From the sequence record OZ346187.1: a stretch of 64,000 nucleotides of DNA; one strand, written 5' to 3'. The translations under genes were made by a program, and so were the position numbers. Below the pieces are notes generated by a model. It had not been told where the DNA came from. It saw nothing but the letters and a program-made list of their open reading frames with translations, and made no database searches. Positions 9,270-61,103 of this stretch are shown here, piece after piece; within the stretch, counting starts at the first letter, position 1; each line of letters starts with the position of its first letter. The DNA comes from a phage.

Positions 9270-9641
9270 ATGTTAGTAAAAGGTACCCACACAGTCAAAC
9301 AACGTATTGAAGTTGAGATTGATGATTGTGAGCTGAAGCATATTTTACGGTCATGCTCCAACGTTTTGCTCCTTAGTATTCTTCAGGAGCGAGCGGAGAA
9401 CGAGTTCTTAAATGCATTGGCAGGCCGTCCCGGTGACTTCTGTGTGCGTAAGCGTGGTGACAACAAGTCGTGGTTGTGGGAGATCGATGCCGACTGGGAT
9501 TACCACAAAAATGAGGGTATAGATGAGCCTATTCGTGAACTGACGGACAAAGAGATTCAGATGTACAATGAAGTTTGTCATTGGGCAACACGCCAACAAA
9601 TTTACCTAGACCCTGTGTGGCTGATTGAAAATAGTCGTTGA
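9270..9641 (+). CDS. hypothetical protein
   Basis: ATG at 9270 preceded by GGAGG RBS; in frame with ORF 9243-9641. Confidence 0.4.
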   Translation: MLVKGTHTVKQRIEVEIDDCELKHILRSCSNVLLLSILQERAENEFLNALAGRPGDFCVRKRGDNKSWLWEIDADWDYHKNEGIDEPIRELTDKEIQMYNEVCHWATRQQIYLDPVWLIENSR

Positions 9642-9666
9642 CAAGAAGTAAGGTTAGATGTAAGAT
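9638..9666 (+). promoter_or_regulatory. sigma70-type promoter
   Basis: TTGACA, 17-bp spacer, TAAGAT. Confidence 0.5.
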
Positions 9667-9717
9667 ACTCCTCACAAACAGAGTATTGATTGTTAAATAA
9701 TTAAGGAGACCTCTAAG

Positions 9718-9945
9718 ATGAAAATCATGTTGAAACCAGAATGCGTTGCAAACGACCGAGCTTTTAAAGATTGCACACTTGGCGCTACTTATGAAGCAGA
9801 GTTTTGTGAGAACCCTTTGGTAAAAGCCCTTTTGGAAGAAGTACTTTATCACAAGAAGAGCTTGATGAGCTGGAAAACTCAGCACAGTGCCTTACCTTTA
9901 AAGATGATGAAGGAGACTCTGTCTGGTGCACTGTTAACGAAGTAG
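9718..9945 (+). CDS. hypothetical protein
   Basis: 75-aa ORF with AAGGAGAC RBS. Confidence 0.4.
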   Translation: MKIMLKPECVANDRAFKDCTLGATYEAEFCENPLVKALLEEVLYHKKSLMSWKTQHSALPLKMMKETLSGALLTK

Positions 9946-9971
9946 TTTTTGTAAAAACTGAACATTAATAC

Positions 9972-10000
9972 TTGACAACAGCGATAGGACCTAATACAAT
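9972..10000 (+). promoter_or_regulatory. sigma70-type promoter overlapped by a palindrome
   Basis: TTGACA, 17-bp spacer, TACAAT; inverted repeat GATAGGACC / GGTCCTATC brackets the -10. Confidence 0.5.
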
Positions 10001-10031
10001 GGTCCTATCAAAACGAAAGGGGACCACAGCA

Positions 10032-10292
10032 ATGACCAAACAATATCAACGAATTAAAGCCAAGGTTAAGCCAGACTATCTAGAGAAGGACTCTGCTTTT
10101 CGGGACTGCACAGCTGACAAAGTTTACACAGGGGCCGTCCTGTTGAACGATAAACTTGAAGTAGATGTGCTGGGTAAAGAGGCCGTTATCGAGGATGACA
10201 ACGGTGACTGTGTTTTCTGCACCACACGAGAGCTAGAAGTCTTAGAATATTTCGGTGAAATCTTCAACTCCTTAGACGACGAGGAAGCGTGA
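10032..10292 (+). CDS. hypothetical protein
   Basis: ORF track 9972-10292; ATG at 10032 follows AAAGGGGA RBS. Confidence 0.35.
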   Translation: MTKQYQRIKAKVKPDYLEKDSAFRDCTADKVYTGAVLLNDKLEVDVLGKEAVIEDDNGDCVFCTTRELEVLEYFGEIFNSLDDEEA

Positions 10293-10681
10293 TGAAAAAT
10301 ATTTGGGATATCGATATCTTTGAAGCCTCTAAGCTTGACGGTGCTGATGGAGTGATTATGGTGTCTGATGGCAAGGCAACACTAACTTCCGGAGATATCA
10401 TCTATGCCTTGGACGAGCTGGCGCTTCTGAAATCTACCGGTAACACTTTGGAGGAGCGTCTTCAAGGATTCGCTTTCAAAGAAGGTACAAATACAGCCAT
10501 GATGTGCACCACACGGACAGTTCAGGTTGGTAACGGTGTCTATATGATTATTGCTGTGTGTCCTAAATTCAGCAACGTCAACAAAGATGATGCTGACGCG
10601 GTCAACGATGTGGTTGTTCTCTTCGTGGGTGACGCTATGGCAGATCTGATGAATGCAGGAGAAGCAGCAAATGAAGACTGA
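10289..10681 (+). CDS. hypothetical protein
   Basis: 130-aa ORF, start overlaps upstream stop. Confidence 0.4.
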   Translation: MMKNIWDIDIFEASKLDGADGVIMVSDGKATLTSGDIIYALDELALLKSTGNTLEERLQGFAFKEGTNTAMMCTTRTVQVGNGVYMIIAVCPKFSNVNKDDADAVNDVVVLFVGDAMADLMNAGEAANED

Positions 10682-10973
10682 AAACATCACCCCAGCAGGG
10701 TTCTTAAAAGTATACCGTGAACTGCTATATACTACAGAGGACAGTGTTCTAGAGTATCCAGAATATCTTTTGCTGTATAAGTATCTGCAGGAGGCTGGTG
10801 AAAATCTGCCAGTTAGTGCAGAAGGTGGTCCAAACTGGATATACAGCGCATGGAGAAAGGTTGACATTCTCCCAGACCCAGGTAAAGATATGGTAGTTTG
10901 GCAGCTTATCAACAACATCGGGATTCCAATCTTTGATGAAGCTGTTAAAATCTATTTTGAACTTGACGATTAA
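10671..10973 (+). CDS. hypothetical protein
   Basis: ORF track 10653-10973; ATG at 10671 after GGAGAAG. Confidence 0.35.
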   Translation: MKTENITPAGFLKVYRELLYTTEDSVLEYPEYLLLYKYLQEAGENLPVSAEGGPNWIYSAWRKVDILPDPGKDMVVWQLINNIGIPIFDEAVKIYFELDD

Positions 10974-10990
10974 TATCAGGAGACCTTAAG

Positions 10991-11236
10991 ATGACTGAAG
11001 CAGTTGCTCGCGCAGGACAGAAAGTACGTTGTGTTGAAGTAGGTTTTGGTGGCAAAGGGTGTCAAAACTTGACTCAAGGCAAGGAATATGCTGTTATCTC
11101 TGGTGGTGGCGACGAAAGTATTGTGTTCGAGGGCCACATCCTGGATGCTGAAAACTTTGAAATCTTTGACGACGATGGGGATCCGATCACCTGCCTGCTG
11201 GACGGGAATTGGGGAACTTTCGAAGTGATTGGCTAA
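10991..11236 (+). CDS. hypothetical protein
   Basis: 81-aa ORF after AGGAGAC RBS. Confidence 0.4.
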   Translation: MTEAVARAGQKVRCVEVGFGGKGCQNLTQGKEYAVISGGGDESIVFEGHILDAENFEIFDDDGDPITCLLDGNWGTFEVIG

Positions 11237-11319
11237 CAAATACCTATTGTAATTTACAGAAGGGGATGCTAAAATAGTGTCTCCTTCTATGTTGTTCAAA
11301 TAAAATCGGAGATTCCATA

Positions 11320-11688
11320 ATGGAACAAATGAACGATCAAGAGTCGGTTGCGATGAACGAGCAAGAACAACCTCAAGAATTTTTCTTAGGGTTAAGTAAA
11401 GATCAAGTGTCTCTTTTGCTAGTGCTTTCTTCTTTCATGGGAAGACTTCAGGAGCTCACACAACAACCGGAGGCTGAACAATTATTTCAGGCTCTGCGTG
11501 AAGAAGAAAAATATCGTCGTTTGGACTATGCCTTAGGTTGGGTAGCTCAACAACGAGATATGCTGATGGCCCTCTCTGGGACCACAAGTTTTGCAATGGG
11601 CCTGTTGGCTCAAGTTCAGGACAAATTAATTCAAGCAGGGTTTGCACACACGGCAAACACTAACGAAGAACAAGGAGACAAAGAATGA
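11320..11688 (+). CDS. hypothetical protein
   Basis: 122-aa ORF after GGAGA RBS. Confidence 0.4.
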   Translation: MEQMNDQESVAMNEQEQPQEFFLGLSKDQVSLLLVLSSFMGRLQELTQQPEAEQLFQALREEEKYRRLDYALGWVAQQRDMLMALSGTTSFAMGLLAQVQDKLIQAGFAHTANTNEEQGDKE

Positions 11689-12911
11689 GCGTTATTCAAC
11701 AATTCGCTAACCCGATGAATCCGCGTGAAACTGTTTTACTGGCTCACGGCATGATTAAACGCGTCAGCATCAAGCCTATCAAAGGTGCTGATCCTACAAC
11801 AGGTATTAAAACCACTGTGTGGCAAGGTAAGAAAATTGAATCCAGCCACACCATCTCTTTACTGATTTCTGAACTGGATTCCTCTGATAACCTACTTCAA
11901 GGTGGTGAAGAAGTTTGGATCAGTATGGGCGATAAGCTGCTTAAACCGGGTCATCAAGACTCTGTCTCTGTTAAAATTGATGACAAGTGGGAAACCGTAA
12001 CGCCAGGATGGATCGTAAATATCCCTTTGAAGGCAAACGAGCATAACGGTAAGACCTACTACAAAGGCTCACTGGCTAAGATGGTTAAGCTGGGTGCAGG
12101 AGAGGCTCCAGCAGCGACTCAGCAGCAAAAACAGCAACAAGGTGCACAATCACAAGGCCAGAAGCAGAAACCTCAGCAGAATGCCAATCAGGACGTTTTA
12201 CGCATCTATGGTGATGTGACTCAGATTGTTGGCAACGTGGTTACTGTAAATGACCACAAGATTGGCGAAGGTGCTATGGTTGTAACTGATGAGCAGCTTA
12301 AAGACCTGGTGGTAGGTGGTCGTGTTGCAGCCATTGTTGACAAAGACACTGGAAACATTATCAGTGGTTTCAAGGCCTATCCTCCTAAGGCAGAGAACGG
12401 CACTCAAGGCTCCGGTGGCAAGCGTAAATCCTCTTACGACCCTATCGGTGTGGAAACGGGGCATAGCATCAATGCGTTGCAGATCATCCTGGATCGCGGG
12501 TTTAAGGTAGACGACCCACTGGGCGTGGCTAAAACACTGCACGTAGTCACCATTGAGCTTAAGAAAGAGTATGCTCAAGCCACCAACCGAACTGAAGATG
12601 AAGTAGGTGCCAGTGTCGGTAATGCGGTGTTGAACGCTTGTCGCCGTATTGACAAGAAAACGAAAGTTGATGATTTTGCAGCGGCAATTACTGCAGAAGC
12701 AAAAGATGTCTTGACTAATCTGGCTGAGCCGTTGTACGATTGGATCAAGAACGGTGCTGGGTCAACTGACCATCAAGAACCTCAGGCTGCCAAACAGGAA
12801 GCAGCTCCACAGCAAAACACTGTAGACGCTCCTCCTGTAAATGATGGGGAAGATGACCCGATGGATCAGAATCCAGCACAGTACGCCTTTGATGATGACA
12901 TCCCTTTTTAA
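11685..12911 (+). CDS. putative single-stranded DNA-binding-like protein with SSB-type acidic C-terminal tail
   Basis: 408 aa; Q-rich low-complexity linker (QQQKQQQGAQSQGQKQKPQQ); terminates ...FDDDIPF, the canonical bacterial SSB tail. Confidence 0.4.
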   Translation: MSVIQQFANPMNPRETVLLAHGMIKRVSIKPIKGADPTTGIKTTVWQGKKIESSHTISLLISELDSSDNLLQGGEEVWISMGDKLLKPGHQDSVSVKIDDKWETVTPGWIVNIPLKANEHNGKTYYKGSLAKMVKLGAGEAPAATQQQKQQQGAQSQGQKQKPQQNANQDVLRIYGDVTQIVGNVVTVNDHKIGEGAMVVTDEQLKDLVVGGRVAAIVDKDTGNIISGFKAYPPKAENGTQGSGGKRKSSYDPIGVETGHSINALQIILDRGFKVDDPLGVAKTLHVVTIELKKEYAQATNRTEDEVGASVGNAVLNACRRIDKKTKVDDFAAAITAEAKDVLTNLAEPLYDWIKNGAGSTDHQEPQAAKQEAAPQQNTVDAPPVNDGEDDPMDQNPAQYAFDDDIPF

Positions 12912-12925
12912 CAATTAGTTAACAT

Positions 12926-12954
12926 AGCCCTGCCCGAAAGGGTGGGGCATTTTT
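12926..12954 (+). terminator. rho-independent terminator
   Basis: Same GCCCTGCCC-GAAA-GGGTGGGGC hairpin as at 1547, followed by T-run. Confidence 0.6.
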
Positions 12955-12973
12955 GTATAAGGAGATCTGAAAA

Positions 12974-13390
12974 ATGACATTAGAAGATATCATTGTTAAA
13001 CCTGAGAACTATGACCAATACAACCTGTCAACTCAATCTGTAGACCTTGGATGCGCCACAGTTAGTGCGTGGCTGGTTAATGGAAAAGAGCTGGACAAGT
13101 GCTTAGAAGCTCACATGTCTGTTAACAAGTTTCTGGATGAAAATACTCACTGGCTTGAGGGTGCTGGAGTATATGCTTCATGGTTGGAGAGCATGGGCTT
13201 TGACTATCAATCTGATGAAGGGTGGTGGAGCTATCTGGCTATCTGTCCAGAAACACTGCAATGCTTCATGAAATACTCTGAAGATCTTGAGTACCGAGCG
13301 GTGGTTGATAGTGCTATTGCCCGTTATAGCCGTAAACCTTTTTCCCATGACATTAAAACTGTGGAAGAATTTGTTGAAGTTTTCTGTTGA
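12974..13390 (+). CDS. hypothetical protein
   Basis: 138-aa ORF after AAGGAGA RBS. Confidence 0.4.
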   Translation: MTLEDIIVKPENYDQYNLSTQSVDLGCATVSAWLVNGKELDKCLEAHMSVNKFLDENTHWLEGAGVYASWLESMGFDYQSDEGWWSYLAICPETLQCFMKYSEDLEYRAVVDSAIARYSRKPFSHDIKTVEEFVEVFC

Positions 13391-13416
13391 CACAGGTTGA
13401 AAGGTGTGCAATTATA
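13387..13416 (+). promoter_or_regulatory. sigma70-type promoter
   Basis: TTGACA, ~17-18 bp spacer, ATTATA. Confidence 0.4.
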
Positions 13417-13486
13417 ACTTCATAAAACGGGAGGACGCGATGAACGAAGAAAACTGGGATGTATAACTAACAGGAGACCACTGCCC

Positions 13487-13684
13487 ATGATTTATCGAAT
13501 CCGTGTAAGAGAAGATGCACCAGGCTGTTACTTTGACTGGCGTGGGTGGTGGTTTCTCCACCCAATGGATGGACTCACAGATAGAATGCTGGATGCTGCC
13601 CTTTATACAGATACCGACATAGAATATAATCTCTATCTGAAGGACGGTATAGATAACGGTCTATTTGAAGCAATTCCTGTGTAA
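13487..13684 (+). CDS. hypothetical protein
   Basis: 65-aa ORF after AGGAGAC RBS. Confidence 0.35.
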   Translation: MIYRIRVREDAPGCYFDWRGWWFLHPMDGLTDRMLDAALYTDTDIEYNLYLKDGIDNGLFEAIPV

Positions 13685-13752
13685 GAGACTGTGATAGCCA
13701 TGTTTTATGATCTTCCTGTAGCACCACCACCTGTTGAACCTGGAGAACTAAG

Positions 13753-14172: not shown

Positions 14173-14620
14173 TACTGTAAAGGGAGATTTAATCTCCCTT
14201 TTTAAGAGCGGTGCTGGTCACCTAATCCACGGTTGTAACTGCTTCCACACAATGGGTAAGGGCATAGCAAAACAGATTGCCCGTGAGTTTCCTCAAGCAT
14301 TGTCAGCCGACAAAGAGACCAGACACGGTTGCCTAAGTAAACTGGGTGCGTTCTCCCGATGGGAGCACTTATCTCCGAGAGGTATTGTCTACGGAATCAA
14401 TCTGTATACTCAGTTCTACCCAGGGCCTAATGCTGAATATTTCTCAATCCTGAAAGGCTTTGAGCTAGTCAATGAGGTATTCGAGGGATCGACTTTACCA
14501 TTCTACATCCCTAAGATCGGATGCGGCATAGGCGGTTTGAAGTGGGAGCACGTAGAGGACGTTATTAACCTCGCCACTTTTGATATAGATATTATCGTGG
14601 TGGAGTACAAAGAGTGTTGA
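14162..14620 (+). CDS. macro-domain-like (ADP-ribose binding/processing) protein
   Basis: HGCNCFHTMGKGIAKQIAREFP and IPKIGCGIGG resemble the conserved core of one macro-domain subfamily. Confidence 0.45.
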   Translation: MIIDTVKGDLISLFKSGAGHLIHGCNCFHTMGKGIAKQIAREFPQALSADKETRHGCLSKLGAFSRWEHLSPRGIVYGINLYTQFYPGPNAEYFSILKGFELVNEVFEGSTLPFYIPKIGCGIGGLKWEHVEDVINLATFDIDIIVVEYKEC

Positions 14621-14645
14621 CAGCTGACTTTTGAGATGGTATAGT
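14617..14645 (+). promoter_or_regulatory. sigma70-type promoter
   Basis: TTGACA, 17-bp spacer, TATAGT. Confidence 0.5.
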
Positions 14646-14676
14646 CACCACAACGATTGAGAGAGGGAGCACCACT

Positions 14677-15068: not shown

Positions 15069-15072
15069 GAGG

Positions 15073-15100
15073 TTGACATCTGAAAACTGCAGTGTATAGT
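15073..15100 (+). promoter_or_regulatory. sigma70-type promoter
   Basis: TTGACA, 16-bp spacer, TATAGT. Confidence 0.5.
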
Positions 15101-15131
15101 ATACACATAAACTAACAGAGAGCGATGTATT

Positions 15132-15323: not shown

Positions 15324-15332
15324 GTATGATAT

Positions 15333-15665: not shown

Positions 15666-15685
15666 GAGAATGCAGGAGATAAAGT

Positions 15686-15931: not shown

Positions 15932-16121
15932 GCTTAAATCTGCATGGAACATCGCTGTGGGGGACGAGATCCGCATCCCAGGTGGAAAGACCATTATGAA
16001 GATATCTCGTATCGAGTACGAAGGTGATCGTGTATTTCATATCTTTGCAGAAGATGGTCGAGAAATTTATATACAGGCAGGCTCTCACATCTATATTCGT
16101 AAGAAAGGGGACGACAAATGA
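15924..16121 (+). CDS. hypothetical protein
   Basis: ORF track 15858-16121; ATG at 15924 after AAGGAGGG. Confidence 0.35.
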   Translation: MFKLKSAWNIAVGDEIRIPGGKTIMKISRIEYEGDRVFHIFAEDGREIYIQAGSHIYIRKKGDDK

Positions 16122-16447
16122 CAGAGATCATCATTTCAACTGCAGGGTATGTGTTCCTGACAATCATTGCACTGACCATTTTGGTGGTGGTATATGGAAT
16201 TGTTATTCTCCCTATTCTTGAGACAATTAGTTTGTGTCGGTGTTGGAGAAAGGCTTACGGTCCACAGCCGTGGAAGGACTGGCCCCACCTGGTGCACATA
16301 GCGTTCTCTTATGCTTATGATCACGCCAGCAGTGCATGCATAACCGGGTATCACGCCCACAACTGGAGCTGGGAAGGGTTGAGGAAATGGAATGTTACAA
16401 AGACCATACCTCTGCGCATGTACAAACCTAAAAACAAAGACAGCTGA
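16118..16447 (+). CDS. small membrane protein
   Basis: N-terminal hydrophobic stretch YVFLTIIALTILVVVYGIVILPIL; last plus-strand gene before the junction. Confidence 0.4.
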   Translation: MTEIIISTAGYVFLTIIALTILVVVYGIVILPILETISLCRCWRKAYGPQPWKDWPHLVHIAFSYAYDHASSACITGYHAHNWSWEGLRKWNVTKTIPLRMYKPKNKDS

Positions 16448-16758
16448 TACTTGAAAATCCCTGGCATATCAAGTGTAAGGAGGATTTCTAAAATGGATTT
16501 CCTCCTTTTGATATTTCACCGGGCCAGATATTTTAAAATTCTTAGAAAATCAGGTCTTTGAAATGAAAAACAGATCGAGTACCGAAAGAGGATGTACAAA
16601 TTTTCTGATAATAATGGACTTATTGTTATAAAAGGTCAGAGGTAAGCTGGGAAAGTTCTGGTAGAAGGGTGAGAGTATGTGCGGAAAAATCTGGAATAGT
16701 GACTTAAAGTACGGTGCGAACGATAAGGAATTGAGCAGCACATCTTATCGTGCCTGTA

Positions 16759-17149
16759 TTTTGTGTGGATGAATGAGAATACCTATCATTGTGAGAACCA
16801 TTATCATTACGGGCAATTTAACAGTACCGATTATGCGCACCACTGGCGATACATACAGGGATTGATAACATGGGTTACTGTTTACGCACATAACAATTGT
16901 ATTTCTTACTATTTGTGTGGGCGTTTAGACGTTGACGGTCAGAAGTCTGCAGGTTAATATCTAATCTATTGGCTGCTAACTATATCCCACACAAATAGTA
17001 AGAAATACAATTGTTATGTGCGTAAACAGTAACCCATGTTATCAATCCCTGTATGCATGCCAGTGGTGCGCATAATGGGTATTATGTTAAATTGCCCGTA
17101 ATGATAATGGTTCTCACAATGATAGGTATTCTCATTCATCCACACAAAA
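16759..17149. repeat. large imperfect inverted repeat (two ~163-bp arms, 16759-16921 and 16986-17149, 64-bp spacer)
   Basis: Right arm is the reverse complement of the left with a few substitutions; mirror ORFs 16763-16957(+) and 17014-17205(-) give the same peptide; spacer holds TTGACG, 17 bp, TAATAT. Confidence 0.85.
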
Positions 17150-17379
17150 TAGATTGCAAATGTTGTGCCACTGTGTGAACGGCCTGGCCTATTAATTTGC
17201 CTCACTGCCTTGATATTTGAGAATTATTATAAGAATGAGAAGTATTCCCATTTCGTCCGCCTGGCAGCACTCCTGTAGGTCCTGCAAGGACTCTAGCTGA
17301 AAGCTAGACCCTTCGGGCCTCCCTGCAGGTCAGGTCAAAATCGTGGTAGAATTGGGCCTGTTCAGATATTTCTGGCTGA

Positions 17380-18590
17380 CTCTTCAGGTCTGTGTGGGAA
17401 AAGCCAACCTCTCCGGCGGGGCATGGGGTCATGACGGGAAAATTGCAGGTCAATTAAAAAATTTACGTGGTGTATGAAGCGCTCTTCAGGTAAGGCAGGT
17501 ATTATGGGATGAAACCCTCTTCAGGCAATGATATTTGTGGGTGTGATATTTGCTGGAAAGCCAGATATGACGGGACTCCCGGCGGGGCAGGGGTAGTACA
17601 GACAGGGAAAATATGGAGGATGTGGTTGGGTAAATTGATCAGGCAGGTAGAGTATGGAATATGTTACAGGTATGTTAAATAGGGAGGCTGAATATCTGTA
17701 GGATTTGTGTGTAAAATCAAAGACTTAAGTGGTGTTGTGGTATTTTCTATAAATAATTCAAGTTTAATAGGTAATATTTGTCTCTATTCGCTTTGTGTGG
17801 TAAACAGATTCAGATGAGATTGGTTTACAAGTGTATACATAATATACAAATTAAAGATACAAGAAACCCCCCTCCCCCTTCGGCTACCATTCACCTTTTC
17901 CTCTGACTGGTACTTAAACACTTATTCAGACTCTTCAGGTTATCACCCATATATCATATGGCAGTGACTGGTGTCCTCCGGCCCCTCTTTCGTCACCCGT
18001 CCGCTTCGCCATGCTAATGCCATAGCCAATGGTTCGGTTGTTCACCCTGTTCACTCAGGTGTATCTCCATACCCCTTCAAACCGAAGAGAACAGAAAACC
18101 CGAATTACTCGGTAAAAGAAAAGAGAAGAACTTAATTTTATCAGGATAGGCAAGAATGTCAAGGCATGACTGCTCACTAAACAAGCAAACAGTCATGTGT
18201 GGAAGGTAAGTGATTGTGGTGGTAGGAAATTTAGTTGAAAGATGTGTTATAGGTGCTTCCAGCACTTTAGCCGGGCAGCTAATTGTGTGTCAGTCCAGCG
18301 GTTCATCCTCTACTTCACTGAAATCAATGTTCATGGTCTCTTCCCAACCATCGATCTCAGCACAAGAGTGGAGTTCTTTAGGGTTTACTCCCAAAGCCTC
18401 AGCAACAGAGTCTATATTTAACACCTCTGGCAGGTATGATTCATCGAATTCAAGGTAAATCAGGCCACGAGTGTTGTCAGCTCCACCAAATATCTCTATC
18501 TTCATGAAATCTCCTCTGGAAATGAGAGTGTGAACAGGGTTTTATACGTTCTAATGCACAGGAATTATACACGTTTGCCTCTTCAGGCCA
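17380..18590. repeat. repeat-rich non-coding junction with recurring CTCTTCAGG 9-mer
   Basis: CTCTTCAGG at ~17380, 17482, 17516, 17931, 18579; related blocks CCGGCGGGGCA(T/G)GGGT at 17412 and 17578 and GGCAGGTA at 17493 and 17643; several short hairpins. Confidence 0.6.
18290..18505 (-). CDS. small acidic protein
   Basis: 71 aa, strongly acidic (D/E-rich); RBS-like AGAGGAGA upstream. Confidence 0.4.
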   Translation of the reverse strand: MKIEIFGGADNTRGLIYLEFDESYLPEVLNIDSVAEALGVNPKELHSCAEIDGWEETMNIDFSEVEDEPLD

Positions 18591-18626
18591 TGCTTTAGCA
18601 TGAGGAACCTGTGTGGGCTCGGTGCT

Positions 18627-18839: not shown

Positions 18840-19199
18840 GTTCCCCCCGTGAGTATTCCGGCAACAGCCGCTATGGAAGTAATGATCATCAGGATCACCA
18901 CTAAAACTTCAGACAATGTTCTCATTGTGTATTCCATATTCTCCAAACTGTGTGTGGATACTATCACGGGAGCGGTAATGTGTCAACAGCAACGCCGCGA
19001 GGGTTTGGTTAAAATCCGAGCGTATGGTGATTTGGGTCAAAACGGACGTGCGTTCTCGCTACGCTCGAAATATGGAGTTGTTTGTAGGGAGCTCTTAAAC
19101 GCTCTGTAATGAGATTAACTGCCCAAGGTATGCAATCGTGCACCAGATAAAGAAAAGGACGCCACAGAGCGTCCTAGGTGTCTTAAATTTGATATTTTG

Positions 19200-19857: not shown

Positions 19858-19888
19858 AAAAAGAGGGGCCCAAGCCCCCCTCTTTGTC
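19858..19888 (-). terminator. hairpin terminator (possibly bidirectional)
   Basis: AGAGGGG-CCCAAGC-CCCCTCT hairpin flanked by T/A runs on both strands. Confidence 0.5.
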
Positions 19889-19889
19889 A

Positions 19890-20541: not shown

Positions 20542-20630
20542 AACACACCGATAGCGCTAAAACAGACAAGGCCATCATTAAAGCTTCAGTAAAATCAGTC
20601 ATTCCTCACCTCTTGTTAGTCACTATACTA

Positions 20631-20894
20631 TCATTTATCCTTGTCGTCAAGAACTTTTTTAAATCTTTCAGGGATATCTCCCGTTCTTAGATAGTTCATG
20701 ACCTCGCAAGGTTCCCACTTGAATTTCTTACAGAGCAGGGCGGCTGAGATTGTTTCATTGCGAAAAGAAAGGATATTAATATCCCACTCTGAGAACCCCA
20801 ACTTCCGAAGGGTAGCTACAGAAATCCTCACCGCAACCCAGCAGCAAAAACATGCAACAAACGCCACTGCTACAACCCACATCAGGATGTTCAT
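20631..20894 (-). CDS. small membrane protein
   Basis: N-terminal hydrophobic segment ILMWVVAVAFVACFCCWVAV. Confidence 0.35.
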   Translation of the reverse strand: MNILMWVVAVAFVACFCCWVAVRISVATLRKLGFSEWDINILSFRNETISAALLCKKFKWEPCEVMNYLRTGDIPERFKKVLDDKDK

Positions 20895-21950: not shown

Positions 21951-22211
21951 TTACAGCACCTCTTCGTCAACTACTTCATAAAAATGGCCTGGGATTGCAA
22001 TAGCGTTCTCACCTTCACCTACAAACACAGTTCCGTCAAGAATCAACATCATAAGAGTTTCTGGAATATCCTCTTCCTGAACGTTGCCAAAACCTTTAAT
22101 CAGCTCGTAGGTTGGAAGATTTACCTCTAAGATGTCACCATCTTTAGAGCGGAAATCAACACCATCCTGAATCTCTGCCATTTCAAGGTTTTTCAGTTTA
22201 ATCTTCATCAA
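21951..22211 (-). CDS. hypothetical protein (small-protein paralog group)
   Basis: 86 aa; MMKIKLKNL start, acidic tail ...VVDEEVL. Confidence 0.4.
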   Translation of the reverse strand: MMKIKLKNLEMAEIQDGVDFRSKDGDILEVNLPTYELIKGFGNVQEEDIPETLMMLILDGTVFVGEGENAIAIPGHFYEVVDEEVL

Positions 22212-22240: not shown

Positions 22241-22269
22241 ATTATTTCACACAGGGTTGGCGTTGTCAA
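22241..22269 (-). promoter_or_regulatory. sigma70-type promoter (minus strand)
   Basis: Reverse complement reads TTGACA, 17-bp spacer, AATAAT. Confidence 0.4.
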
Positions 22270-24146: not shown

Positions 24147-24175
24147 ATGATACTAAATCTGAAGCGTTGTGTCAA
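24147..24175 (-). promoter_or_regulatory. sigma70-type promoter (minus strand)
   Basis: Reverse complement reads TTGACA, 17-bp spacer, TATCAT; lies upstream of the HPF-like gene. Confidence 0.45.
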
Positions 24176-27996: not shown

Positions 27997-28314
27997 TTAG
28001 GTGCGGTCTCCATCCCTACTCTCCTTCCTGATATTCTTGTAGTAATCAACTAGGCACATTATTACGATGAAGATAACAACAGGCCAAAAAGGTGCAGCAG
28101 TGATGATGGTGATAAAATCATCAAACTTCACCCTTCGTCTGGACACGATGCATACACCTGTCAAGAATACCGCTGTTATAACGGACATTACCAGGTAACC
28201 TATTAGCACAACATTTATACTCATTGGTCCTCCCCTTTGTAGGTTAAATTGTATACTACAAATGGTCGCTGAGGGTGTCAAGAAAATTATCCCGTTCTTT
28301 CTCAGAGTTTTCAT
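27997..28314 (-). CDS. small membrane protein
   Basis: Two hydrophobic segments. Confidence 0.35.
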   Translation of the reverse strand: MKTLRKNGIIFLTPSATICSIQFNLQRGGPMSINVVLIGYLVMSVITAVFLTGVCIVSRRRVKFDDFITIITAAPFWPVVIFIVIMCLVDYYKNIRKESRDGDRT

Positions 28315-29455: not shown

Positions 29456-29727
29456 AATCTAGGCTCCTTAAATGAATCTATGTAATCAATTAAATCCCAA
29501 GCATCGCGATGGGCTGTCAGAGGGTATACTTCTCCGAGAGGGATCATAGCAATAAGTCTATCAAAAACCCAGTCTGGACGCAACATTTTATGGTGATATT
29601 CCCACTCACCTTCCACAGATTTTTTCTGAGTTATCAGGATCTCTGTGTAGTGTTTCTCCTGTCTTGAGTAGATTGAAAATGACTTGTACATAAATGACCC
29701 CCTCTTGTTGAAAACAACAATACACAA
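29452..29727 (-). CDS. hypothetical protein
   Basis: 91-aa ORF. Confidence 0.35.
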   Translation of the reverse strand: MCIVVFNKRGSFMYKSFSIYSRQEKHYTEILITQKKSVEGEWEYHHKMLRPDWVFDRLIAMIPLGEVYPLTAHRDAWDLIDYIDSFKEPRL

Positions 29728-30042
29728 CTACCAGGTTACTGTCAAGTAGGCAACCGTATTATTTTTCTCTGGGGAGATGCCAACAACATCTACCTGCAGA
29801 CCTCCTGCCCTTAAATCTCCAACAATGTGAGGGAAGTAATCTGAGAGATGCGAGGGTAGATTTATCGAAAATCCGCACCCCAGAAAGCCTGCTAACGCTT
29901 TATTTTGTATCTCCCCCACAATCGCATCATAAATGGAGTTAAGCTCGTCAGGGAGCGTTACAGGACGTTTTAGCGCTAACTGGTGTAATTTGTCCTTAGC
30001 ACTCATTTTCATTTCAGGTCTACCTCTGGAGGTGCCAACCAC
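29728..30042 (-). CDS. hypothetical protein
   Basis: 104-aa ORF. Confidence 0.35.
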   Translation of the reverse strand: MVGTSRGRPEMKMSAKDKLHQLALKRPVTLPDELNSIYDAIVGEIQNKALAGFLGCGFSINLPSHLSDYFPHIVGDLRAGGLQVDVVGISPEKNNTVAYLTVTW

Positions 30043-30542: not shown

Positions 30543-30593
30543 GCAAATCTCCAGATCATAAAAGCCCTCCGAAGAGGGCTTTAGAATTAATGT

Positions 30594-32015: not shown

Positions 32016-32116
32016 ACTGTCCTTCTCTCTGTTTTGTCCGATAATAATATCTAAAGCTTACCTATTTGTCAACAACTGTTTTAGATATTTAAGGGTGGAA
32101 TAACCACCCTTCTGTA

Positions 32117-33434: not shown

Positions 33435-33464
33435 ATTATAACCAACTTAACAAAACTTTGTCAA
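33435..33464 (-). promoter_or_regulatory. sigma70-type promoter (minus strand)
   Basis: Reverse complement reads TTGACA, ~18-bp spacer, TATAAT. Confidence 0.4.
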
Positions 33465-49946: not shown

Positions 49947-50005
49947 GTCTAGTTCTCCTAGTTTATAAATATCTGACTGATAATATCAGATTAATAACAC
50001 TTTTG

Positions 50006-50302
50006 TCAAGACTTTTTAGTCTTTCTTGGAGAGCTTTTTGTTGATCTTTTCCTTTTGTGGTAGATTCCAAGTGCAGCGTTTTCTTGGGCGCACGTTTTAA
50101 CAGTTCTCAGAGAAGAACTTTCAGCTTTAGGCAGGTTTAACTCCCACCAACCGAGCCAGTAAAGTTCTGATTCCGACAGCTGCTCAGATTCAGCCTTCCG
50201 ATACAATGATTGCATACCTCTAATGATGTCGTCCAGAGGTGTATCGAATACAAAAGCTGTCTTATCAAATTTCTCTTTTACAGGTTTCTTAGCCATGCTC
50301 AC
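50006..50302 (-). CDS. hypothetical protein
   Basis: 98-aa ORF, basic C-terminus. Confidence 0.4.
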   Translation of the reverse strand: MSMAKKPVKEKFDKTAFVFDTPLDDIIRGMQSLYRKAESEQLSESELYWLGWWELNLPKAESSSLRTVKTCAQENAALGIYHKRKRSTKSSPRKTKKS

Positions 50303-51827: not shown

Positions 51828-51890
51828 GGTTAAACCCTCCTAAACATTTTATGAGGTAACAATACCACGTCCGTGTGGTTATGTCAATGA

Positions 51891-54333: not shown

Positions 54334-54395
54334 AACTAACTACCTCACTGCATACTTTCCATAATAAGTAAAGCCGGGTAATCCCGGCTATGTTG

Positions 54396-55109: not shown

Positions 55110-55122
55110 TGAAGGTCTCCTT

Positions 55123-55884: not shown

Positions 55885-55892
55885 AAGTGTCC

Positions 55893-56243: not shown

Positions 56244-57175
56244 TGCATATAGTCCTCGTTGTGGAAATAGTAGTCCAGTATCTCACGACGCTCCTGCTCT
56301 AATAAGCAATTCCACACATCTTCTGTATAGTTGCTACGAATAAATTTTACCATACCGTAAAACTCTTCGTCAACACGTTTAAAGATATCATCATCCCAAA
56401 TCTTCCAAGCTTTACCCCTCATTACTGCCTTCTGTGCCAGATAGTATGGAGACTTGATCTTCAGCTGCAGATCATAAGGGTAGTAAGGCTTACGAATCAT
56501 ATACCCTTCACCTCTTGTTTCTGCAGCTAATTCTTTTGCATAGCTGAACGGAATTTCACGCACAGTGTTAGGACGTTTTGCACCAAGGTATTTGGCAATC
56601 CCATCTAAAGCTGCTTCTGGTAGCATTATTCCAGAATCATTATATCTGCAACCTATCAAATATGCGCCATGGTCTTCTTGAACAATATGCGGATCTGAAG
56701 GGTGACAAATTTCAAACATGAATGTCATGTTTTCATTGCCCATAACCTTCTTGATAAGATCTAAATTACCACATTGCTCTTGGATGGTTTCCTTTGCAAG
56801 GTTACAATATGGAGAATCAAGAGACCCGGTTGTTGAGAACAATAGGTCACCTTTATGAGATGATACCACACCAAGGAATCCGTTCTTTTTCTCTACCGCA
56901 GTCACAAGCTTATTGTCAGGCAGGTTGGTGGAGTTTTCTCCCAAGTTAAACACTTTTGTGAAGGGCCATGCCACAACATTTCCTTCATTACCTACAACAA
57001 TGCCTCGGCACTCCAGTAAACGAGGGGACAAATGCCATAAATTGTTGTAAAATACTTTTCTAGCATATTTATAGATCTTTAACCCGAGATCTGGGTAATA
57101 CCTACTGGTTGCAAGACCTTTGTCAACTAGGTCGTCTGCATTAAAATACTTCATTATATGTTCCTCATTTGTCAT
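56240..57175 (-). CDS. putative RNA ligase (Rnl1-like nucleotidyltransferase)
   Basis: Motif I-like EKKNG, motif IV-like EGYMIR, motif V-like LKIKSP; likely start is the second Met (57154) after a GAGGAA RBS. Confidence 0.45.
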   Translation of the reverse strand: MTNEEHIMKYFNADDLVDKGLATSRYYPDLGLKIYKYARKVFYNNLWHLSPRLLECRGIVVGNEGNVVAWPFTKVFNLGENSTNLPDNKLVTAVEKKNGFLGVVSSHKGDLLFSTTGSLDSPYCNLAKETIQEQCGNLDLIKKVMGNENMTFMFEICHPSDPHIVQEDHGAYLIGCRYNDSGIMLPEAALDGIAKYLGAKRPNTVREIPFSYAKELAAETRGEGYMIRKPYYPYDLQLKIKSPYYLAQKAVMRGKAWKIWDDDIFKRVDEEFYGMVKFIRSNYTEDVWNCLLEQERREILDYYFHNEDYMQ

Positions 57176-57218
57176 TTTGTCAGTCTATCCTGCCACACAA
57201 ATAACTTAGTGTCAACAC

Positions 57219-57247
57219 TTGAAATTAACAAAACAGTTAGGTATACT
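57219..57247 (+). promoter_or_regulatory. sigma70-type promoter
   Basis: TTGAAA, 17-bp spacer, TATACT. Confidence 0.45.
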
Positions 57248-57275
57248 ACCGTTGAAATTAAAACGGAGGGTCGCT

Positions 57276-57686
57276 ATGTCTAAAATGCTATATATCGTGC
57301 GTGGTCTACCAGGGTCTGGCAAATCAACACTGGCAAATGCGCTATCTTTAGAGGGTCTGTATCCACATTTTGAGAACGACATGTTCTGGTATGACGATGA
57401 CGGCAATTACAACTGGGATGCAAGTAAAGTAACACTCGCAGCAAAATGGTGCAAAGATAACGTAGAAGATATGATGCGTATGGGATACGACCGTATCGTG
57501 GTAAGTAATACGTTTACAAAAGAAAAACATGTGCAGGAATATGTTGACATGGCAATCACTCATGGGTATAGTTATACCGTGATCGTGGTTGAAAACCGCC
57601 ACGGCAATAAAAGCATTCATGATGTTCCAGACAAGGTTGTGGATCGTATGGAACGCCAGCTTAAAAACTGCATTAAACTTAAATGA
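57276..57686 (+). CDS. P-loop kinase, polynucleotide-kinase-like
   Basis: Walker A GLPGSGKST; ATG at 57276 after ACGGAGGG; ORF track 57219-57686. Confidence 0.5.
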   Translation: MSKMLYIVRGLPGSGKSTLANALSLEGLYPHFENDMFWYDDDGNYNWDASKVTLAAKWCKDNVEDMMRMGYDRIVVSNTFTKEKHVQEYVDMAITHGYSYTVIVVENRHGNKSIHDVPDKVVDRMERQLKNCIKLK

Positions 57687-57693
57687 GGAATGT

Positions 57694-58248
57694 ATGAAAT
57701 ACTTTGTAACAAGCGACACACACTTTCTCCACCAGCGGGTCATGGAGTTTGATTCATGTCAAAAACACAGATCTCAGTATGATCACAATCTTGACAGTAT
57801 GAATGCGGGAATCATCACCAAGTGGAACTCTGTTGTGTCACCTGCAGACACTGTGTTCCACTTGGGAGATATTGCATGCACTAATGATAAGAATATCAAC
57901 AAATTGCTCCCAGATATTCTAAATATGTTGAACGGACATATTATTCTTGTTCGTGGCAACCATGACACAAGGACGACTGTCAAAATTATGAAAGAGTTCG
58001 GTCATGAGGTTGTAGATTATTACGAGCTTCGCCACAACAAGAATTTGATCTGTATGAGCCATTACCAGTTTGCAAAGTGGAACAGAAAGCCTCACGGATC
58101 AGTCCAACTGTTCGGTCATGCTCACGGAACCACACAACAGTTGTTTGGCAGGCAGCTTGATGTCGGTTGGGATGTGTGGGGGAGACTCTTACCATTAGAA
58201 GAGGCATACCGTATTGCAATGAGTTTTGATATTGACAGCAGGGAGTAA
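57694..58248 (+). CDS. calcineurin-like metallophosphoesterase
   Basis: SDTHF, GDI, GNHD metallophosphatase motifs; ATG at 57694 after GAGGAA; ORF track 57589-58248. Confidence 0.6.
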   Translation: MKYFVTSDTHFLHQRVMEFDSCQKHRSQYDHNLDSMNAGIITKWNSVVSPADTVFHLGDIACTNDKNINKLLPDILNMLNGHIILVRGNHDTRTTVKIMKEFGHEVVDYYELRHNKNLICMSHYQFAKWNRKPHGSVQLFGHAHGTTQQLFGRQLDVGWDVWGRLLPLEEAYRIAMSFDIDSRE

Positions 58249-58295
58249 TCCCTGCTATTTTAAAGAAAATTGCCACACAAGGAGAATCAGGAGAT

Positions 58296-58646
58296 ATGAA
58301 AGATGGGGATAAGCTGCTATATCTTAAAGTCCCCCTTGAAATACTATCTATGTCAAAAGTTTTGAATGACACAACTGGGGAGGTTGTTGTTCTTGACTTG
58401 TATGACAAGATCGTATACTGCTACCTGCACAACTGGTATAAGCTTGGAGGAAATTCACGCTTCACACCAAGCACAAGGAAAATTGCAGCAGATGTTGGGA
58501 TAAAGAAAACAAAAGCAGCAGCGTGCGTTAAAACTTTAGAATGTGCAGGAGTGGTTGAAACATCCACACAAGGGAGAGGTAAAAGATGCACATTTTCCAA
58601 AGTTTTGCCACCAGAAGAAGTTATTCGGATGTCAACAACTGGTTAG
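58296..58646 (+). CDS. hypothetical protein, possibly DNA-binding
   Basis: 116-aa ORF directly upstream of the iteron-like repeats. Confidence 0.35.
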   Translation: MKDGDKLLYLKVPLEILSMSKVLNDTTGEVVVLDLYDKIVYCYLHNWYKLGGNSRFTPSTRKIAADVGIKKTKAAACVKTLECAGVVETSTQGRGKRCTFSKVLPPEEVIRMSTTG

Positions 58647-58717
58647 ACCAGTAAAAACTTAAATATCTGTACTATAAGGATTCGTATGTTTTATGTTCGC
58701 CATGGAACGGATACTAT

Positions 58718-58783
58718 TAACTGTCCGTGATACGGACACATCTGCCCGTAATACGGACACTAACTGTCCGTGATACGGACACA
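58718..58783. repeat. three tandem ~21-bp iteron-like repeats, each an inverted repeat
   Basis: TAACTGTCCGTGATACGGACACA at 58718 and 58761 (identical) and TCTGCCCGTAATACGGACAC between; each is GTCCGT-N3-ACGGAC; followed by an AT-rich segment with GGTACTAAGTAC / CTAAGTACC palindromes (58790-58920). Confidence 0.8.
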
Positions 58784-58920
58784 TAAAGAATATAACTAAA
58801 ATAACTAAATAATAAAAAATAAAAGATCTAGTACTTATGGTACTAAGTACATATACTTAACTTATGTAGAATATACTAGATCCTAAGTACCATGTTTTAA
58901 ATTTATTACTTACTATGGGC

Positions 58921-59170
58921 AGTGTCGGCCCTTCATTGGCACTCGCCTACGAGGGGCGAGATGCCGGGCCTCCTTGGTGCACACAATAACAGAAGTTCAT
59001 ACATGCAGGTCTGTTAACATGTGTGGGAGCGAAGCGATAGCGCAGGCCAAAGGCCGAGCACTGATGTGGGCCACCGACGAAAGCTTGCCAGCGCCGTAAG
59101 GAGTCGGTTGAGAGTCTCCCGCACGAGCTTGGATGAAGTTTATGTGTGGAAACTGACAAGAAGGCCCCTA
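58921..59170 (+). ncRNA. candidate structured non-coding RNA (unclassified)
   Basis: ~250 bp GC-rich block in AT-rich surroundings; several hairpins (CTCGCC-TACGAGG-GGCGAG, GGCC-AAA-GGCC); only a weak overlapping minus-strand ORF. Confidence 0.25.
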
Positions 59171-59285
59171 AATCGCTCCACAGCTATATAAACTATACCA
59201 GGTAATGCAATCGCACCAGTTTGATAGAAAAGCTCGTTACAAAGCGATACAGTGAGTTTTTCTATAACTTGAAGAGGAGGCAGCT

Positions 59286-59864
59286 ATGGGTTCACGCAAA
59301 GATGACCGTGAAAAGATTGCAAAACGTTATCAGAATGAAGAACAGATGGAGAAAACTTTCAAGTGGAAGCCAGGTTTCCAGCGTAATCATTCTAACGCTC
59401 GTGATCGTAAGCATCCGGATAAGTGGTTAACACCGCCAAATGATGGCATGCAGGTTGGGGATGAGAAGGAGCTGTCACCTGGAAAAGATGGCAACTACAT
59501 TCGCACTAAGGAAGCAGGTCCAAAGGATGACAGCTATCTTGTAGATAAGGTTCTTGACGGTGTTGATGTAGGTGTTGACACTGTACGAAACCTTTTTCTT
59601 GGTTGGTATCGCACAGGGTTTTTCGACATCAAGGCTATTCGTCGTGTTTGTGATATTAAAAAGTCTGCCTACGATGATGATTCCCTACATCGCACTCTGA
59701 GACAATACTCAGAGAGGTACGGTCATCCAGTTATCACTCTTGACGATATTAACGAAGTTATGTATCATGTAGAGGTTGTTGCAGGTAGGTTCGGTGATGC
59801 ATATCTCGGTATTCTTTCTGCAAAGGATGAGGTAATGTTAAATAAGATTTACTATGAACGCTGA
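59286..59864 (+). CDS. hypothetical protein
   Basis: 192-aa ORF after AGGAGG RBS. Confidence 0.5.
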   Translation: MGSRKDDREKIAKRYQNEEQMEKTFKWKPGFQRNHSNARDRKHPDKWLTPPNDGMQVGDEKELSPGKDGNYIRTKEAGPKDDSYLVDKVLDGVDVGVDTVRNLFLGWYRTGFFDIKAIRRVCDIKKSAYDDDSLHRTLRQYSERYGHPVITLDDINEVMYHVEVVAGRFGDAYLGILSAKDEVMLNKIYYER

Positions 59865-59874
59865 GGGGCGATTA

Positions 59875-60063
59875 ATGAACAATCCGGTAGCAAAGAACTG
59901 TAATAAATTCAACAAGTCTGCGATTCACACTGACAGGAAAAAGAGTTGGTTTCCTGACATTGACGAGGAGCTTGAGAGTTACTTTGAAGATTTAGTCACC
60001 AATGCAGATGAGGTTGCGATTAAAGAATACGCAGACAGGAGGGATAAGGCCGGAATCTGTTGA
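59875..60063 (+). CDS. hypothetical protein
   Basis: ORF track 59854-60063; ATG at 59875. Confidence 0.35.
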   Translation: MNNPVAKNCNKFNKSAIHTDRKKSWFPDIDEELESYFEDLVTNADEVAIKEYADRRDKAGIC

Positions 60064-60088
60064 CAAAAATAATGTTACCTGATAAGAT
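60060..60088 (+). promoter_or_regulatory. sigma70-type promoter
   Basis: TTGACA, 17-bp spacer, TAAGAT. Confidence 0.5.
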
Positions 60089-60139
60089 CTGCAATATGAT
60101 GTGATACAATTTTAACTTACGAGGTCTACAGGTAATGCT

Positions 60140-60382
60140 ATGTTTAAGGTTAAGCTCGTTTTTCGTTCCATGAATGAGGATTATTTAGAAGATGAAGGTG
60201 AATTTCGTGCACTGGATGATGCAATAGATTTTGCCAACGACTTAGCTTGTATGAATACGGGTTATGGGCTATGCTGTTGGGATGGTGGTGTTCAGATCGG
60301 TGATAGCAAGATCTTCTACTTCTACCCTGAGCCTGATAACAAACAAATTAAGTATGTTTTATTTATTTGTGCTTTACAATGA
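60140..60382 (+). CDS. hypothetical protein
   Basis: 80-aa ORF downstream of promoter. Confidence 0.4.
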   Translation: MFKVKLVFRSMNEDYLEDEGEFRALDDAIDFANDLACMNTGYGLCCWDGGVQIGDSKIFYFYPEPDNKQIKYVLFICALQ

Positions 60383-60669
60383 GGTTGTTTTCGTGTATCA
60401 TGATGAATATCCAATTTAAAGATGAATTTGATGGCTTTATCTCCGGATGCTTTGAAACAGGGTTCGGAGAAGGCTGAGTTCCCCTTAGAGGGCTTGATAG
60501 TGCACCACACTTAAAATGGTAGGGGCAGCCAGCACATGACGATGTGACCCCAGCCAACCTGTAATAAGGTCGAGCCAAAGTGCGGTAATGGGCTCTGGTA
60601 ACCCACTTGTTGGGTCTTGCTGGTCCAGGACGCTGGACAAGTCGCAGGGAATACCACCCTGCGGCGAAC

Positions 60670-60698
60670 TTGACAATCAGTATTTGCTATGATAAAAT
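60670..60698 (+). promoter_or_regulatory. sigma70-type promoter
   Basis: TTGACA, 17-bp spacer, TAAAAT. Confidence 0.5.
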
Positions 60699-60726
60699 CC
60701 ACCTATCACGTGATAATGGAGGAAAC

Positions 60727-61065
60727 ATGGCGGATACAACTAAAAAGCGTCGCCGTAGAGGCAGACCTCTGAAAGAGGAGTCCAACGCCATTCAGCTAGA
60801 GAAGAACATCCTTGATATGAAGGAATCTTTTATAGCGATGGTTCCAGAAGCTCACAAAGTTTTAAGAGAGCTGATGTTGGACCCGAAAACCAAACAAAAT
60901 ATTCGTCAAAGCATTGCAGAGTATGTTCTTGATAAGGCAGACCGAATGCAGGAAGAATATGATGAGATGTTTGGTGAAGAGGAAGAGGTGGTAGTGGAAG
61001 AGGCTGAAAAACCAGCACCTTTTATGCCATTTACTACAGAAATACAGCCTGTTAGCAATAGCTAA
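60727..61065 (+). CDS. AT-hook-containing small acidic protein
   Basis: ATG at 60727 after GGAGGAAAC; N-terminal KKRRRRGRPLK (AT-hook-like RGRP); acidic C-terminus; ORF track 60607-61065. Confidence 0.4.
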   Translation: MADTTKKRRRRGRPLKEESNAIQLEKNILDMKESFIAMVPEAHKVLRELMLDPKTKQNIRQSIAEYVLDKADRMQEEYDEMFGEEEEVVVEEAEKPAPFMPFTTEIQPVSNS

Positions 61066-61074
61066 AATATTTTC

Positions 61075-61103
61075 TTGACAAACTTTGCTTAACAGTGTAA
61101 TAT
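61075..61103 (+). promoter_or_regulatory. sigma70-type promoter upstream of tRNA cluster
   Basis: TTGACA, 17-bp spacer, TAATAT. Confidence 0.5.

Follow-up and report, generated by a model that had tools for sequence, protein, structure and literature searches.

The question raised by the 64,000-nt stretch of phage DNA in sequence record OZ346187.1 (called the window below, at its full length) is whether the many sigma70-like motifs that it carries are promoters and, if so, which RNA polymerase would read them. Megablast showed that the window comes from an rV5-like Escherichia coli myophage of the genus Vequintavirus. An earlier note had picked out 11 near-consensus sites between positions 9638 and 61103 and had taken them as a sign that the phage relies heavily on the RNA polymerase of its host. 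We consider it highly likely that a virulent rV5-like coliphage uses these motifs as sigma70-type promoters, and their features suggest that they are very probably read by the host enzyme. This reading, which bears out the earlier note in part, is preferred because the motif is enriched and co-oriented with the genes, lies at a fixed short distance from ribosome-binding sites and has selectively conserved hexamers, and because no sigma domain was found in two relatives.

Enrichment and orientation of the motif

The exact motif TTGACA-N17-TAnnnT occurred 23 times in the window, against 1.04 ± 1.09 copies in 100 shuffles that preserved the dinucleotides. The maximum in the shuffles was 5, and 0/100 of them reached 23. 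All 23 exact sites were co-oriented with the surrounding genes. The distance from TTGACA to TAnnnT showed a single sharp peak at 17 nt (23 sites), with 5 sites at 16 nt, 7 sites at 18 nt and 0–3 sites at the other spacings. The hexamer TTGACA had 62 sense-strand and 18 antisense-strand copies, and 18.2 copies are predicted by the base composition.

All 11 sites of the earlier note exist. Their description as near-perfect TTGACA-17-TAxxxT was accurate for seven of them, which are exact (9638, 9972, 14617, 24147, 60060, 60670, and 61075), and the other four deviate slightly. The -10 box is AATTAT, after a TGn motif, at 13387 and AATAAT at 22241, whereas site 41887 has the -35 box TTGACT with a perfect TATAAT. 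The fourth, 15073, departs from the claim of exact 17-bp spacers, with 16 nt before TATAGT, although the peak at 17 nt supports this claim for the motif in general. Sites 22241, 24147, and 41887 are on the minus strand; the coordinate quoted for them is the end of the -10 box, and their -35 boxes start at 22269, 24175, and 41915. The list omitted 16 of the 23 exact sites, five of which lie beyond the range that it covered (1497, 4343, 8326, 8776, and 63554).

A weight-matrix scan, which the earlier note had proposed as a check, was run on the window. The sigma70 matrix was built from approximate E. coli frequencies, not from a curated file; it also scored the spacer and gave extra weight to TGn. 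At a threshold of at least 12 bits, 41 sites were co-oriented with the genes and 5 were anti-oriented; at 14 bits or more, the counts were 14 and 1. The working set, kept once the boundaries of the gene blocks had been corrected, consisted of 45 sites scoring at least 12 bits, and exact TTGACA was present in 34 of them. The column counts of the -10 box in the 45 sites were T 42, A 45, T 27, A 24, A 29, and T 44; the box is firm solely at TA...T. The T and G of the extended -10 element were present in about half of the sites. Beyond the canonical elements the alignment showed little: a weak A-rich stretch 4–9 nt upstream of the -35 box, and a T followed by G or C immediately 5′ of TTGACA.

Placement relative to genes

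The -10 box ended 19–51 nt 5′ of a start codon in 23 of the 45 sites, mostly with a Shine-Dalgarno (SD) motif. The chance of falling in this 33-nt band is about 7%, given one gene start per ~470 nt, and the binomial p value was 3e-15. For sites 15073, 33464, and 60060, the gene list or the sequence served to place the start. Site 61075 ended 59 nt before the first tRNA gene of a cluster (tRNA-Arg, 61162). A site was present in 23 of the 51 intergenic gaps of at least 40 nt, and most of the gaps of this size without a site contained a terminator-like hairpin or arose as artefacts where the simple gene caller met interrupted genes. This caller divided the interrupted nrdD region and some other genes wrongly, and the distances at ~35.6–37.4 kb and 46.8–47.5 kb are therefore untrustworthy.

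The placement of one promoter bears on gene annotation. The start annotated in the relatives at 9999 overlaps the -10 box of promoter 9972, and the ATG at 10032 has the SD sequence aaagggg. By its position the promoter favours the ATG at 10032 over 9999 as the codon where translation truly begins. It was also observed that the TGA of the -35 box TTGACA doubles as the stop codon of the upstream gene in five promoters (9638, 13387, 14617, 60060, and 50009 on the minus strand), which indicates that genes and promoters are tightly packed.

Conservation across relatives

Each of the 45 sites was aligned with rV5 (species V5), 'Campylobacter phage D#' (species FFH2), and MaxTheCat and nomine (species APECc02), and a position was counted once as variable when any relative differed. 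The -35 box was variable at 3/270 positions (1.1%) and the -10 box at 8/270 (3.0%). The spacer was variable at 65/633 positions (10.3%), the 20 nt upstream at 58/900 (6.4%), and the 20 nt downstream at 86/900 (9.6%). Both hexamers together (11/540, 2.0%) were less variable than spacer and flanks (209/2433, 8.6%), with an odds ratio of 0.22 and a Fisher p value of 5e-9. The sites were chosen by their match in the window, and this choice inflates, if anything, the apparent change of the hexamers in the relatives, so the test is conservative. Among the 24 sites by gene starts, 1.4% of the hexamer positions were variable, against 9.3%; the effect was weaker in the 21 intragenic or unassigned sites (2.8% against 7.8%, p = 0.004).

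Heavily substituted spacers stood between unchanged hexamers at 24175, 28281, 33464, and 50009 and, with the exception of one -35 base, at 14617. At 14617, rV5 and D# had an unchanged -10 box, a -35 box altered at the last base only, and a heavily substituted spacer. The hexamers were intact in D# at 24147..24175, with six substitutions in the spacer, and at 49980..50009, where the spacer was rewritten. At 28253..28281 the hexamers were fixed and the spacer was variable among the relatives.

The motif is also present outside the genus. Salmonella phage SSE121 (Seunavirus) had 22 exact sites, against 1 in a reversed-pattern control, and these include look-alikes, probably orthologous, of window sites 60060 and 61075. 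The distribution in MaxTheCat was uneven: 24 of its 31 exact sites are in the non-structural part at 62–135 kb, with few in the structural module. The sites of the window show the properties of the sigma70 class: a -35 box near TTGACA, a -10 box near TATAAT, a spacer of 17 ± 1 nt, a co-oriented position upstream of genes, and hexamers that, unlike the spacer sequence, are under functional constraint.

Which polymerase reads the sites, and when

The Sigma70_r2 domain was not found in the complete records of MaxTheCat and rV5 by a six-frame search in which the control genomes responded. According to the rV5 paper, the phage has no homologues of T4 gp33, gp45, and gp55, and one Srd-like protein encoded elsewhere in its genome was postulated to be an anti-sigma factor (PMC3606486).

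We infer that the sites are recognised by the host sigma70 holoenzyme, and the strength and the early timing that the earlier note ascribed to them are likewise inferred, from the sequence only. On the injected DNA the sites would be bound by E. coli RNA polymerase holoenzyme in its unmodified form, with initiation about 7 nt past the -10 box. Each transcript would then have a short leader (~20–45 nt), mostly unstructured, that leads straight into the ribosome-binding site. The ~45 sites are scattered over the non-structural arms in the window. The genes behind them have unknown functions (small genes), serve replication or nucleotide metabolism, or encode tRNAs, and with such mixed classes the sites are possibly early and middle promoters. 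The distribution, with few sites in the structural module, fits an early/middle class. Nothing relevant on Vequintavirus transcriptomes or infection time courses was obtained from the searched literature.

Several observations weigh against reading the sites as promoters of the host polymerase. About 21 of the 45 candidates are inside coding sequence or otherwise unassigned, far from start codons; some of the intragenic sites may be non-functional, or their conservation may come partly from coding constraint. Transcripts from promoter 1497 would run into a strong, U-tract-bearing GC hairpin (-21 kcal/mol) about 14 nt after the expected start. Promoter 18162 on the minus strand faces a region free of open reading frames (ORFs), with no convincing downstream gene. 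A search for a T7-type RNA polymerase (PF00940) was empty, but the control was silent too, and the absence of a phage polymerase therefore rests on the annotation and the rV5 paper. For no Vequintavirus promoter did the searched literature give experimental evidence from start-site mapping, in vitro transcription or reporters.

Alternative explanations

A two-tier programme run by the host polymerase alone is possible, although we hold it to be rather unlikely. The -35-dependent TTGACA class would drive the early and middle genes of the non-structural arms, and -35-less promoters with the extended -10 motif TGGTAAAATA would later serve the structural genes. The TTGACA class would be shut off by a phage factor that blocks region 4 of sigma70, for which the Srd-like protein of rV5 would be a candidate. 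The motif TGGTAAAATA, which is the 'late' motif of rV5, occurred 14 times in the window against 6.5 in the shuffles, and 1 of 100 shuffles reached 14, which is a weak enrichment. MaxTheCat has four exact copies (8436, 11957, 26112, and 31383), all within the structural module and on its coding strand. This distribution is complementary to that of the TTGACA-type sites and is compatible with the two-tier scheme as well as with a plain early/middle class. Such a scheme would be similar in timing to the AsiA switch of T4, but without homologues of AsiA, MotA, and gp55. No AsiA or MotA homologue is known to us. Separately, a class of T4-type late promoters (a TATAAATA-like box without a -35 element, before late genes; gp55-dependent) was considered and rejected, the motif TGGTAAAATA being only weakly over-represented in the window.

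It is improbable that the intergenic promoter units are mainly mobile cassettes of a promoter plus a stem-loop, comparable to the promoter-early stem-loop (PeSL) units, and that they matter chiefly as recombination joints for gene shuffling, with promoter activity secondary. In favour of this reading, the small-gene island of about 12.8 kb is exactly the part that is missing from the window relative to its relatives, and local hairpins are present at a few sites (1497, 9972, 22269, and 24175). The mean folding energy of the leaders of the 45 sites was -6.75 kcal/mol, however, against -6.89 kcal/mol in random sense-strand 45-mers (Mann-Whitney p = 0.71), and only two of the 45 leaders, 1497 and 56008, were under the 5th percentile. 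Most of the sites are orthologous and syntenic in three species and are not repeated units. A stem-loop 3′ of the promoter, which defines PeSL cassettes, was thus rejected as a general feature, the leader energies being no different from the background. Folding also showed that many leaders adjoining genes are unusually open.

Instead of being a plain sigma70 -35 element, the invariant TTGACA might bind a factor encoded by the phage, or a host polymerase that has been modified; in that case the sites would make up a regulated class of middle promoters peculiar to the phage. The -35 box is indeed far more uniform than the -10 box and least variable between species (3/270), and rV5 has the Srd-like protein with its postulated anti-sigma role (PMC3606486). 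Against this, the motif and its spacing, like the extended -10 element, coincide exactly with the sigma70 consensus of E. coli, the sigma domain was not found in MaxTheCat and rV5, and nothing is strongly conserved outside the canonical elements save the weak A-rich stretch and the upstream T(G/C). We regard this explanation as very improbable.

That the matches are compositional or due to chance and have no function is hardly credible: a loose consensus scan (9/12 matches), which was near the shuffled expectation and was not used for site calling, was barely above the shuffles in parts of the window (44 vs 39.2 and 48 vs 39.7), but the stringent matches are about 20-fold enriched, strand-specific, placed before start codons, and selectively conserved.

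Gene organization and predicted promoters of the window

Host-read sigma70 promoters being the preferred explanation, we describe the sites along the genome. The window showed 97–98% identity to the phages MaxTheCat, nomine, HdK5, and pangalan (megablast), and the rV5 gene order is kept across it. The first plus-strand block (1–~16.5 kb) encodes a helicase, a methyltransferase-like protein, a primase/helicase, DNA polymerase, and many small ORFs. An ORF-poor stretch (~16.5–19 kb) separates it from a long minus-strand block (19–57.2 kb) with small ORFs and the genes for an HPF-like protein, a ClpP-like protease, PhoH, ribonucleotide reductases, thymidylate synthase, exonuclease, ligase, a Sir2-like protein, and RNA ligase. 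The second plus-strand block (57.2–64 kb) has seven tRNA genes and heads toward the terminase gene. A group I intron is located inside the DNA polymerase gene at 7871–8106 (Rfam RF00028, 64.7 bits), where the MaxTheCat annotation has a join.

In the first plus-strand block, the predicted promoter TTGACA-17-TACAAT at 1497..1525 (rV5 P231) is 67 nt from the start at 1593 of the methyltransferase-like gene, which is followed by the primase/helicase gene. A candidate promoter, TTGACA-17-TACGAT at 4343..4371, is in the 3′ end of the primase/helicase gene, 116 nt from the DNA polymerase start at 4488. Further predicted promoters of the block are TTGACA-17-TATTAT with TGn at 8776..8804 (rV5 P224; 36 nt to ATG 8841), TTGACA-17-TAAGAT at 9638..9666 (rV5 P220; 51 nt to ATG 9718), and TTGACA-17-TACAAT at 9972..10000, which is absent from the rV5 list and is 31 nt from the SD-bearing ATG 10032. 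They are followed by TTGTAA-17-TAAAAT with TGn at 11247..11275 (44 nt to ATG 11320) and by a weaker site, TTGACA-17-AATTAT with TGn, at 13387..13415 (71 nt to ATG 13487). The last two are TTGACA-17-TATAGT with TGn at 14617..14645 (31 nt to ATG 14677) and TTGACA-16-TATAGT at 15073..15100 (rV5 P205; ~31 nt to ATG 15132).

On the minus strand, TTGACA-17-TAGTAT with TGn at 18958..18986 (rV5 P162) is predicted to be the promoter before the last small minus-strand ORFs. The predicted promoter TTGACG-17-TATAGT at 20622..20650 (rV5 P156) is 19 nt from ATG 20602, and TTGACA-17-AATAAT with TGn at 22241..22269 (rV5 P150) is ~30 nt from a start at 22208–22211. The gene starting at ATG 24099, 47 nt from the predicted promoter TTGACA-17-TATCAT at 24147..24175 (rV5 P144), has a counterpart annotated as 'sigma 54 modulation factor' in rV5. 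Three sites are at similar distances from their genes: TTGACA-17-TAGTAT at 28253..28281 (28 nt to ATG 28224), TTGACA-17-TATTGT at 29717..29745 (25 nt to ATG 29691), and TTGACA-17-TATTAT at 32044..32072 (rV5 P121; 28 nt to ATG 32015). The site at 33435..33464 (rV5 P118), TTGACA-18-TATAAT, matches the consensus at 12/12 positions.

The predicted promoter TTGACT-17-TATAAT at 41887..41915 (rV5 P107; P106 in GenBank) follows right after the thymidylate synthase gene and is 40 nt from ATG 41846. The remaining ones of the minus-strand block are TTGACT-17-TATAAA with TGn at 43157..43185 (rV5 P105; 28 nt to ATG 43128), TTGACA-17-TATTCT with TGn at 45091..45119 (82 nt to ATG 45008), TTGACA-18-TATTAT with TGn at 49980..50009 (rV5 P093; 33 nt to ATG 49946), and TTGACA-17-TATTGT with TGn at 51859..51887 (rV5 P090; 31 nt to ATG 51827).

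A divergent pair of predicted promoters (57187..57247, both strands) stands between the minus and plus gene blocks. Its minus member is TTGACA-17-CAGGAT, from 57215 down to 57187, and its plus member is TTGAAA-17-TATACT at 57219–57247 (rV5 P081). Beyond it, on the plus strand, the intragenic site TTGACA-17-TATAGT at 57544..57572 (P80 in the rV5 record) is 121 nt from ATG 57694, and TTGACA-18-TATTTT with TGn at 58232..58261 (rV5 P76) is 34 nt from ATG 58296 of a putative helix-turn-helix (HTH) regulator gene. TTGACA-17-TAAGAT with TGn is located at 60060..60088 (rV5 P075). The top-scoring predicted promoter is TTGACA-17-TAAAAT with TGn at 60670..60698 (rV5 P074; 28 nt to ATG 60727). The predicted promoter of the tRNA cluster, at 61075..61103 (rV5 PtRNA), is TTGACA-17-TAATAT, and a promoter-like site, TTGACA-17-TAACAT with TGn, is at 63554..63582 (139 nt to ATG 63722). 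The other exact TTGACA-N17-TAnnnT sites are 8326 on the plus strand and 24663, 34471, 36411, and 55398 on the minus strand.

Two further features were noted in the second plus-strand block. Directly 3′ of the HTH regulator gene (58296–58646), the palindrome TGTCCGTGATACGGACA is present in three tandem copies at 58718–58784, spaced 21–22 nt apart. The DNA that follows is very AT-rich, and the arrangement resembles an operator array or an origin. A tRNA-like gene called by ARAGORN within the tRNA cluster (61631–61729) is atypical, with a length of 99 nt and an anticodon of 4 nt, and its Rfam tRNA score was only 35.5 bits.

Terminators and transcription units

A terminator-like hairpin with a U-tract at 1547..1574 (+; rV5 t232) is directly 3′ of promoter 1497, and could be an attenuator, give a short RNA or act as a 5′ stabiliser. 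The terminator at 12927..12954 (+; rV5 t213) has the same hairpin sequence. Two hairpins with T-runs on the plus strand were read by eye and are not in the list of the terminator scan: 16477..16516, after the last gene of the plus-strand block (16118–16447), and 62343..62379, in the intergenic gap 3′ of the tRNA cluster. The minus strand has a terminator-like hairpin with a T-run at 19149..19175 and predicted terminators at 19858..19882 (rV5 t158), whose hairpin is readable on both strands, at 30558..30579 (GCCCTCTTCGGAGGGCTTTTAT; rV5 t122), after the ClpP-like gene, and at 45799..45827 (rV5 t099).

The earlier note had expected the promoters to give a map of transcription units. They do mark entry points, but the 64 kb contain about 8 convincing co-oriented terminators against about 45 candidate promoters, and discrete units did not emerge. 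With so few terminators, the promoters are better described as nested entry points into long co-directional transcripts than as boundaries of separate units. Repeated entry would reinforce these transcripts along their length.

ORF-free region and island junction

The orphan promoter-like site TTGACA-16-TAAAAT with TGn at 18135..18162 on the minus strand is in the ORF-free region, and its hexamers are intact in the four relatives. It may drive a non-coding RNA from this region. Five of the seven copies of CTCTTCAGG in the window were found in the ORF-free region (16950–18600), each of them in plus orientation, along with numerous TGTGTGG repeats. The region may serve as an origin or in packaging, or it may correspond to a non-coding RNA. 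Rfam detected only tRNAs and the group I intron in the window, with no known RNA family 3′ of the orphan site, and comparison of the region with the corresponding gap of SSE121 gave trivial matches only.

The variable small-gene island that is missing from the window, about 12.8 kb of small plus-strand ORFs, is present in MaxTheCat, nomine, and rV5. The junction region is at window positions 16553–17151. About 200 nt at the junction had no match in the phage collection at the megablast level, the sole sensitivity tried, and are followed by a 165-nt inverted copy (16757–16921) of the subsequent sequence (16986–17151). The junction is spanned by no record of the phage collection. Either the assembly produced it as an artefact, or a natural deletion took place together with a snap-back duplication.

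Comparison with known promoter systems

The early promoters of the T-even phages and T5 are read by the unmodified sigma70 holoenzyme of the host. They resemble the window sites in their near-consensus boxes, frequent TGn, A-rich upstream DNA, dense arrays before small early genes, and use of the host polymerase, but they have no sequence relationship to the window sites. The PeSL cassettes of T4-type phages, reportedly described by Arbiol et al. in 2010, are similar in placing a host-type early promoter before single small genes in plastic genome regions. They differ in that the stem-loop that defines them is not general at the window sites.

The closest comparison is rV5 itself. Kropinski et al. 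2013 (Virol J 10:76; PMC3606486) predicted 33 sigma70-type promoters in rV5, 11 of them with an extended -10 element, and 20 terminators. The rV5 sites are carried in GenBank DQ832317 as features named 'regulatory: Sigma70-type promoter', and this set is itself predicted only. Eight of the 11 sites of the earlier note are orthologous to entries of the rV5 set (Table S4), namely P220, P205, P150, P144, P107, P075, P074, and PtRNA. Across the window, about 20 of the 45 sites are identical to listed entries or one base off, and about 25 further candidates are unlisted there, such as 9972, 14617, 28281, 29745, 45119, and 63554. Several rV5 promoters (P164–P195B) are in the 12.8-kb island, which the window lacks.

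The understanding of these phages is unchanged by this analysis, as rV5 was already described as dependent on host sigma70 promoters spread over the non-structural regions. The catalogue of promoters is useful for the annotation of Vequintavirus genomes (such as the choice of ATG 10032 over 9999), for the design of transcriptome experiments, and as a source of compact promoters, predicted to be strong, for engineering. The finding is a correct rediscovery of the rV5 promoters, to which this study adds about 25 further candidates, the placement statistics, the cross-species footprint, and the negative result on leader hairpins.

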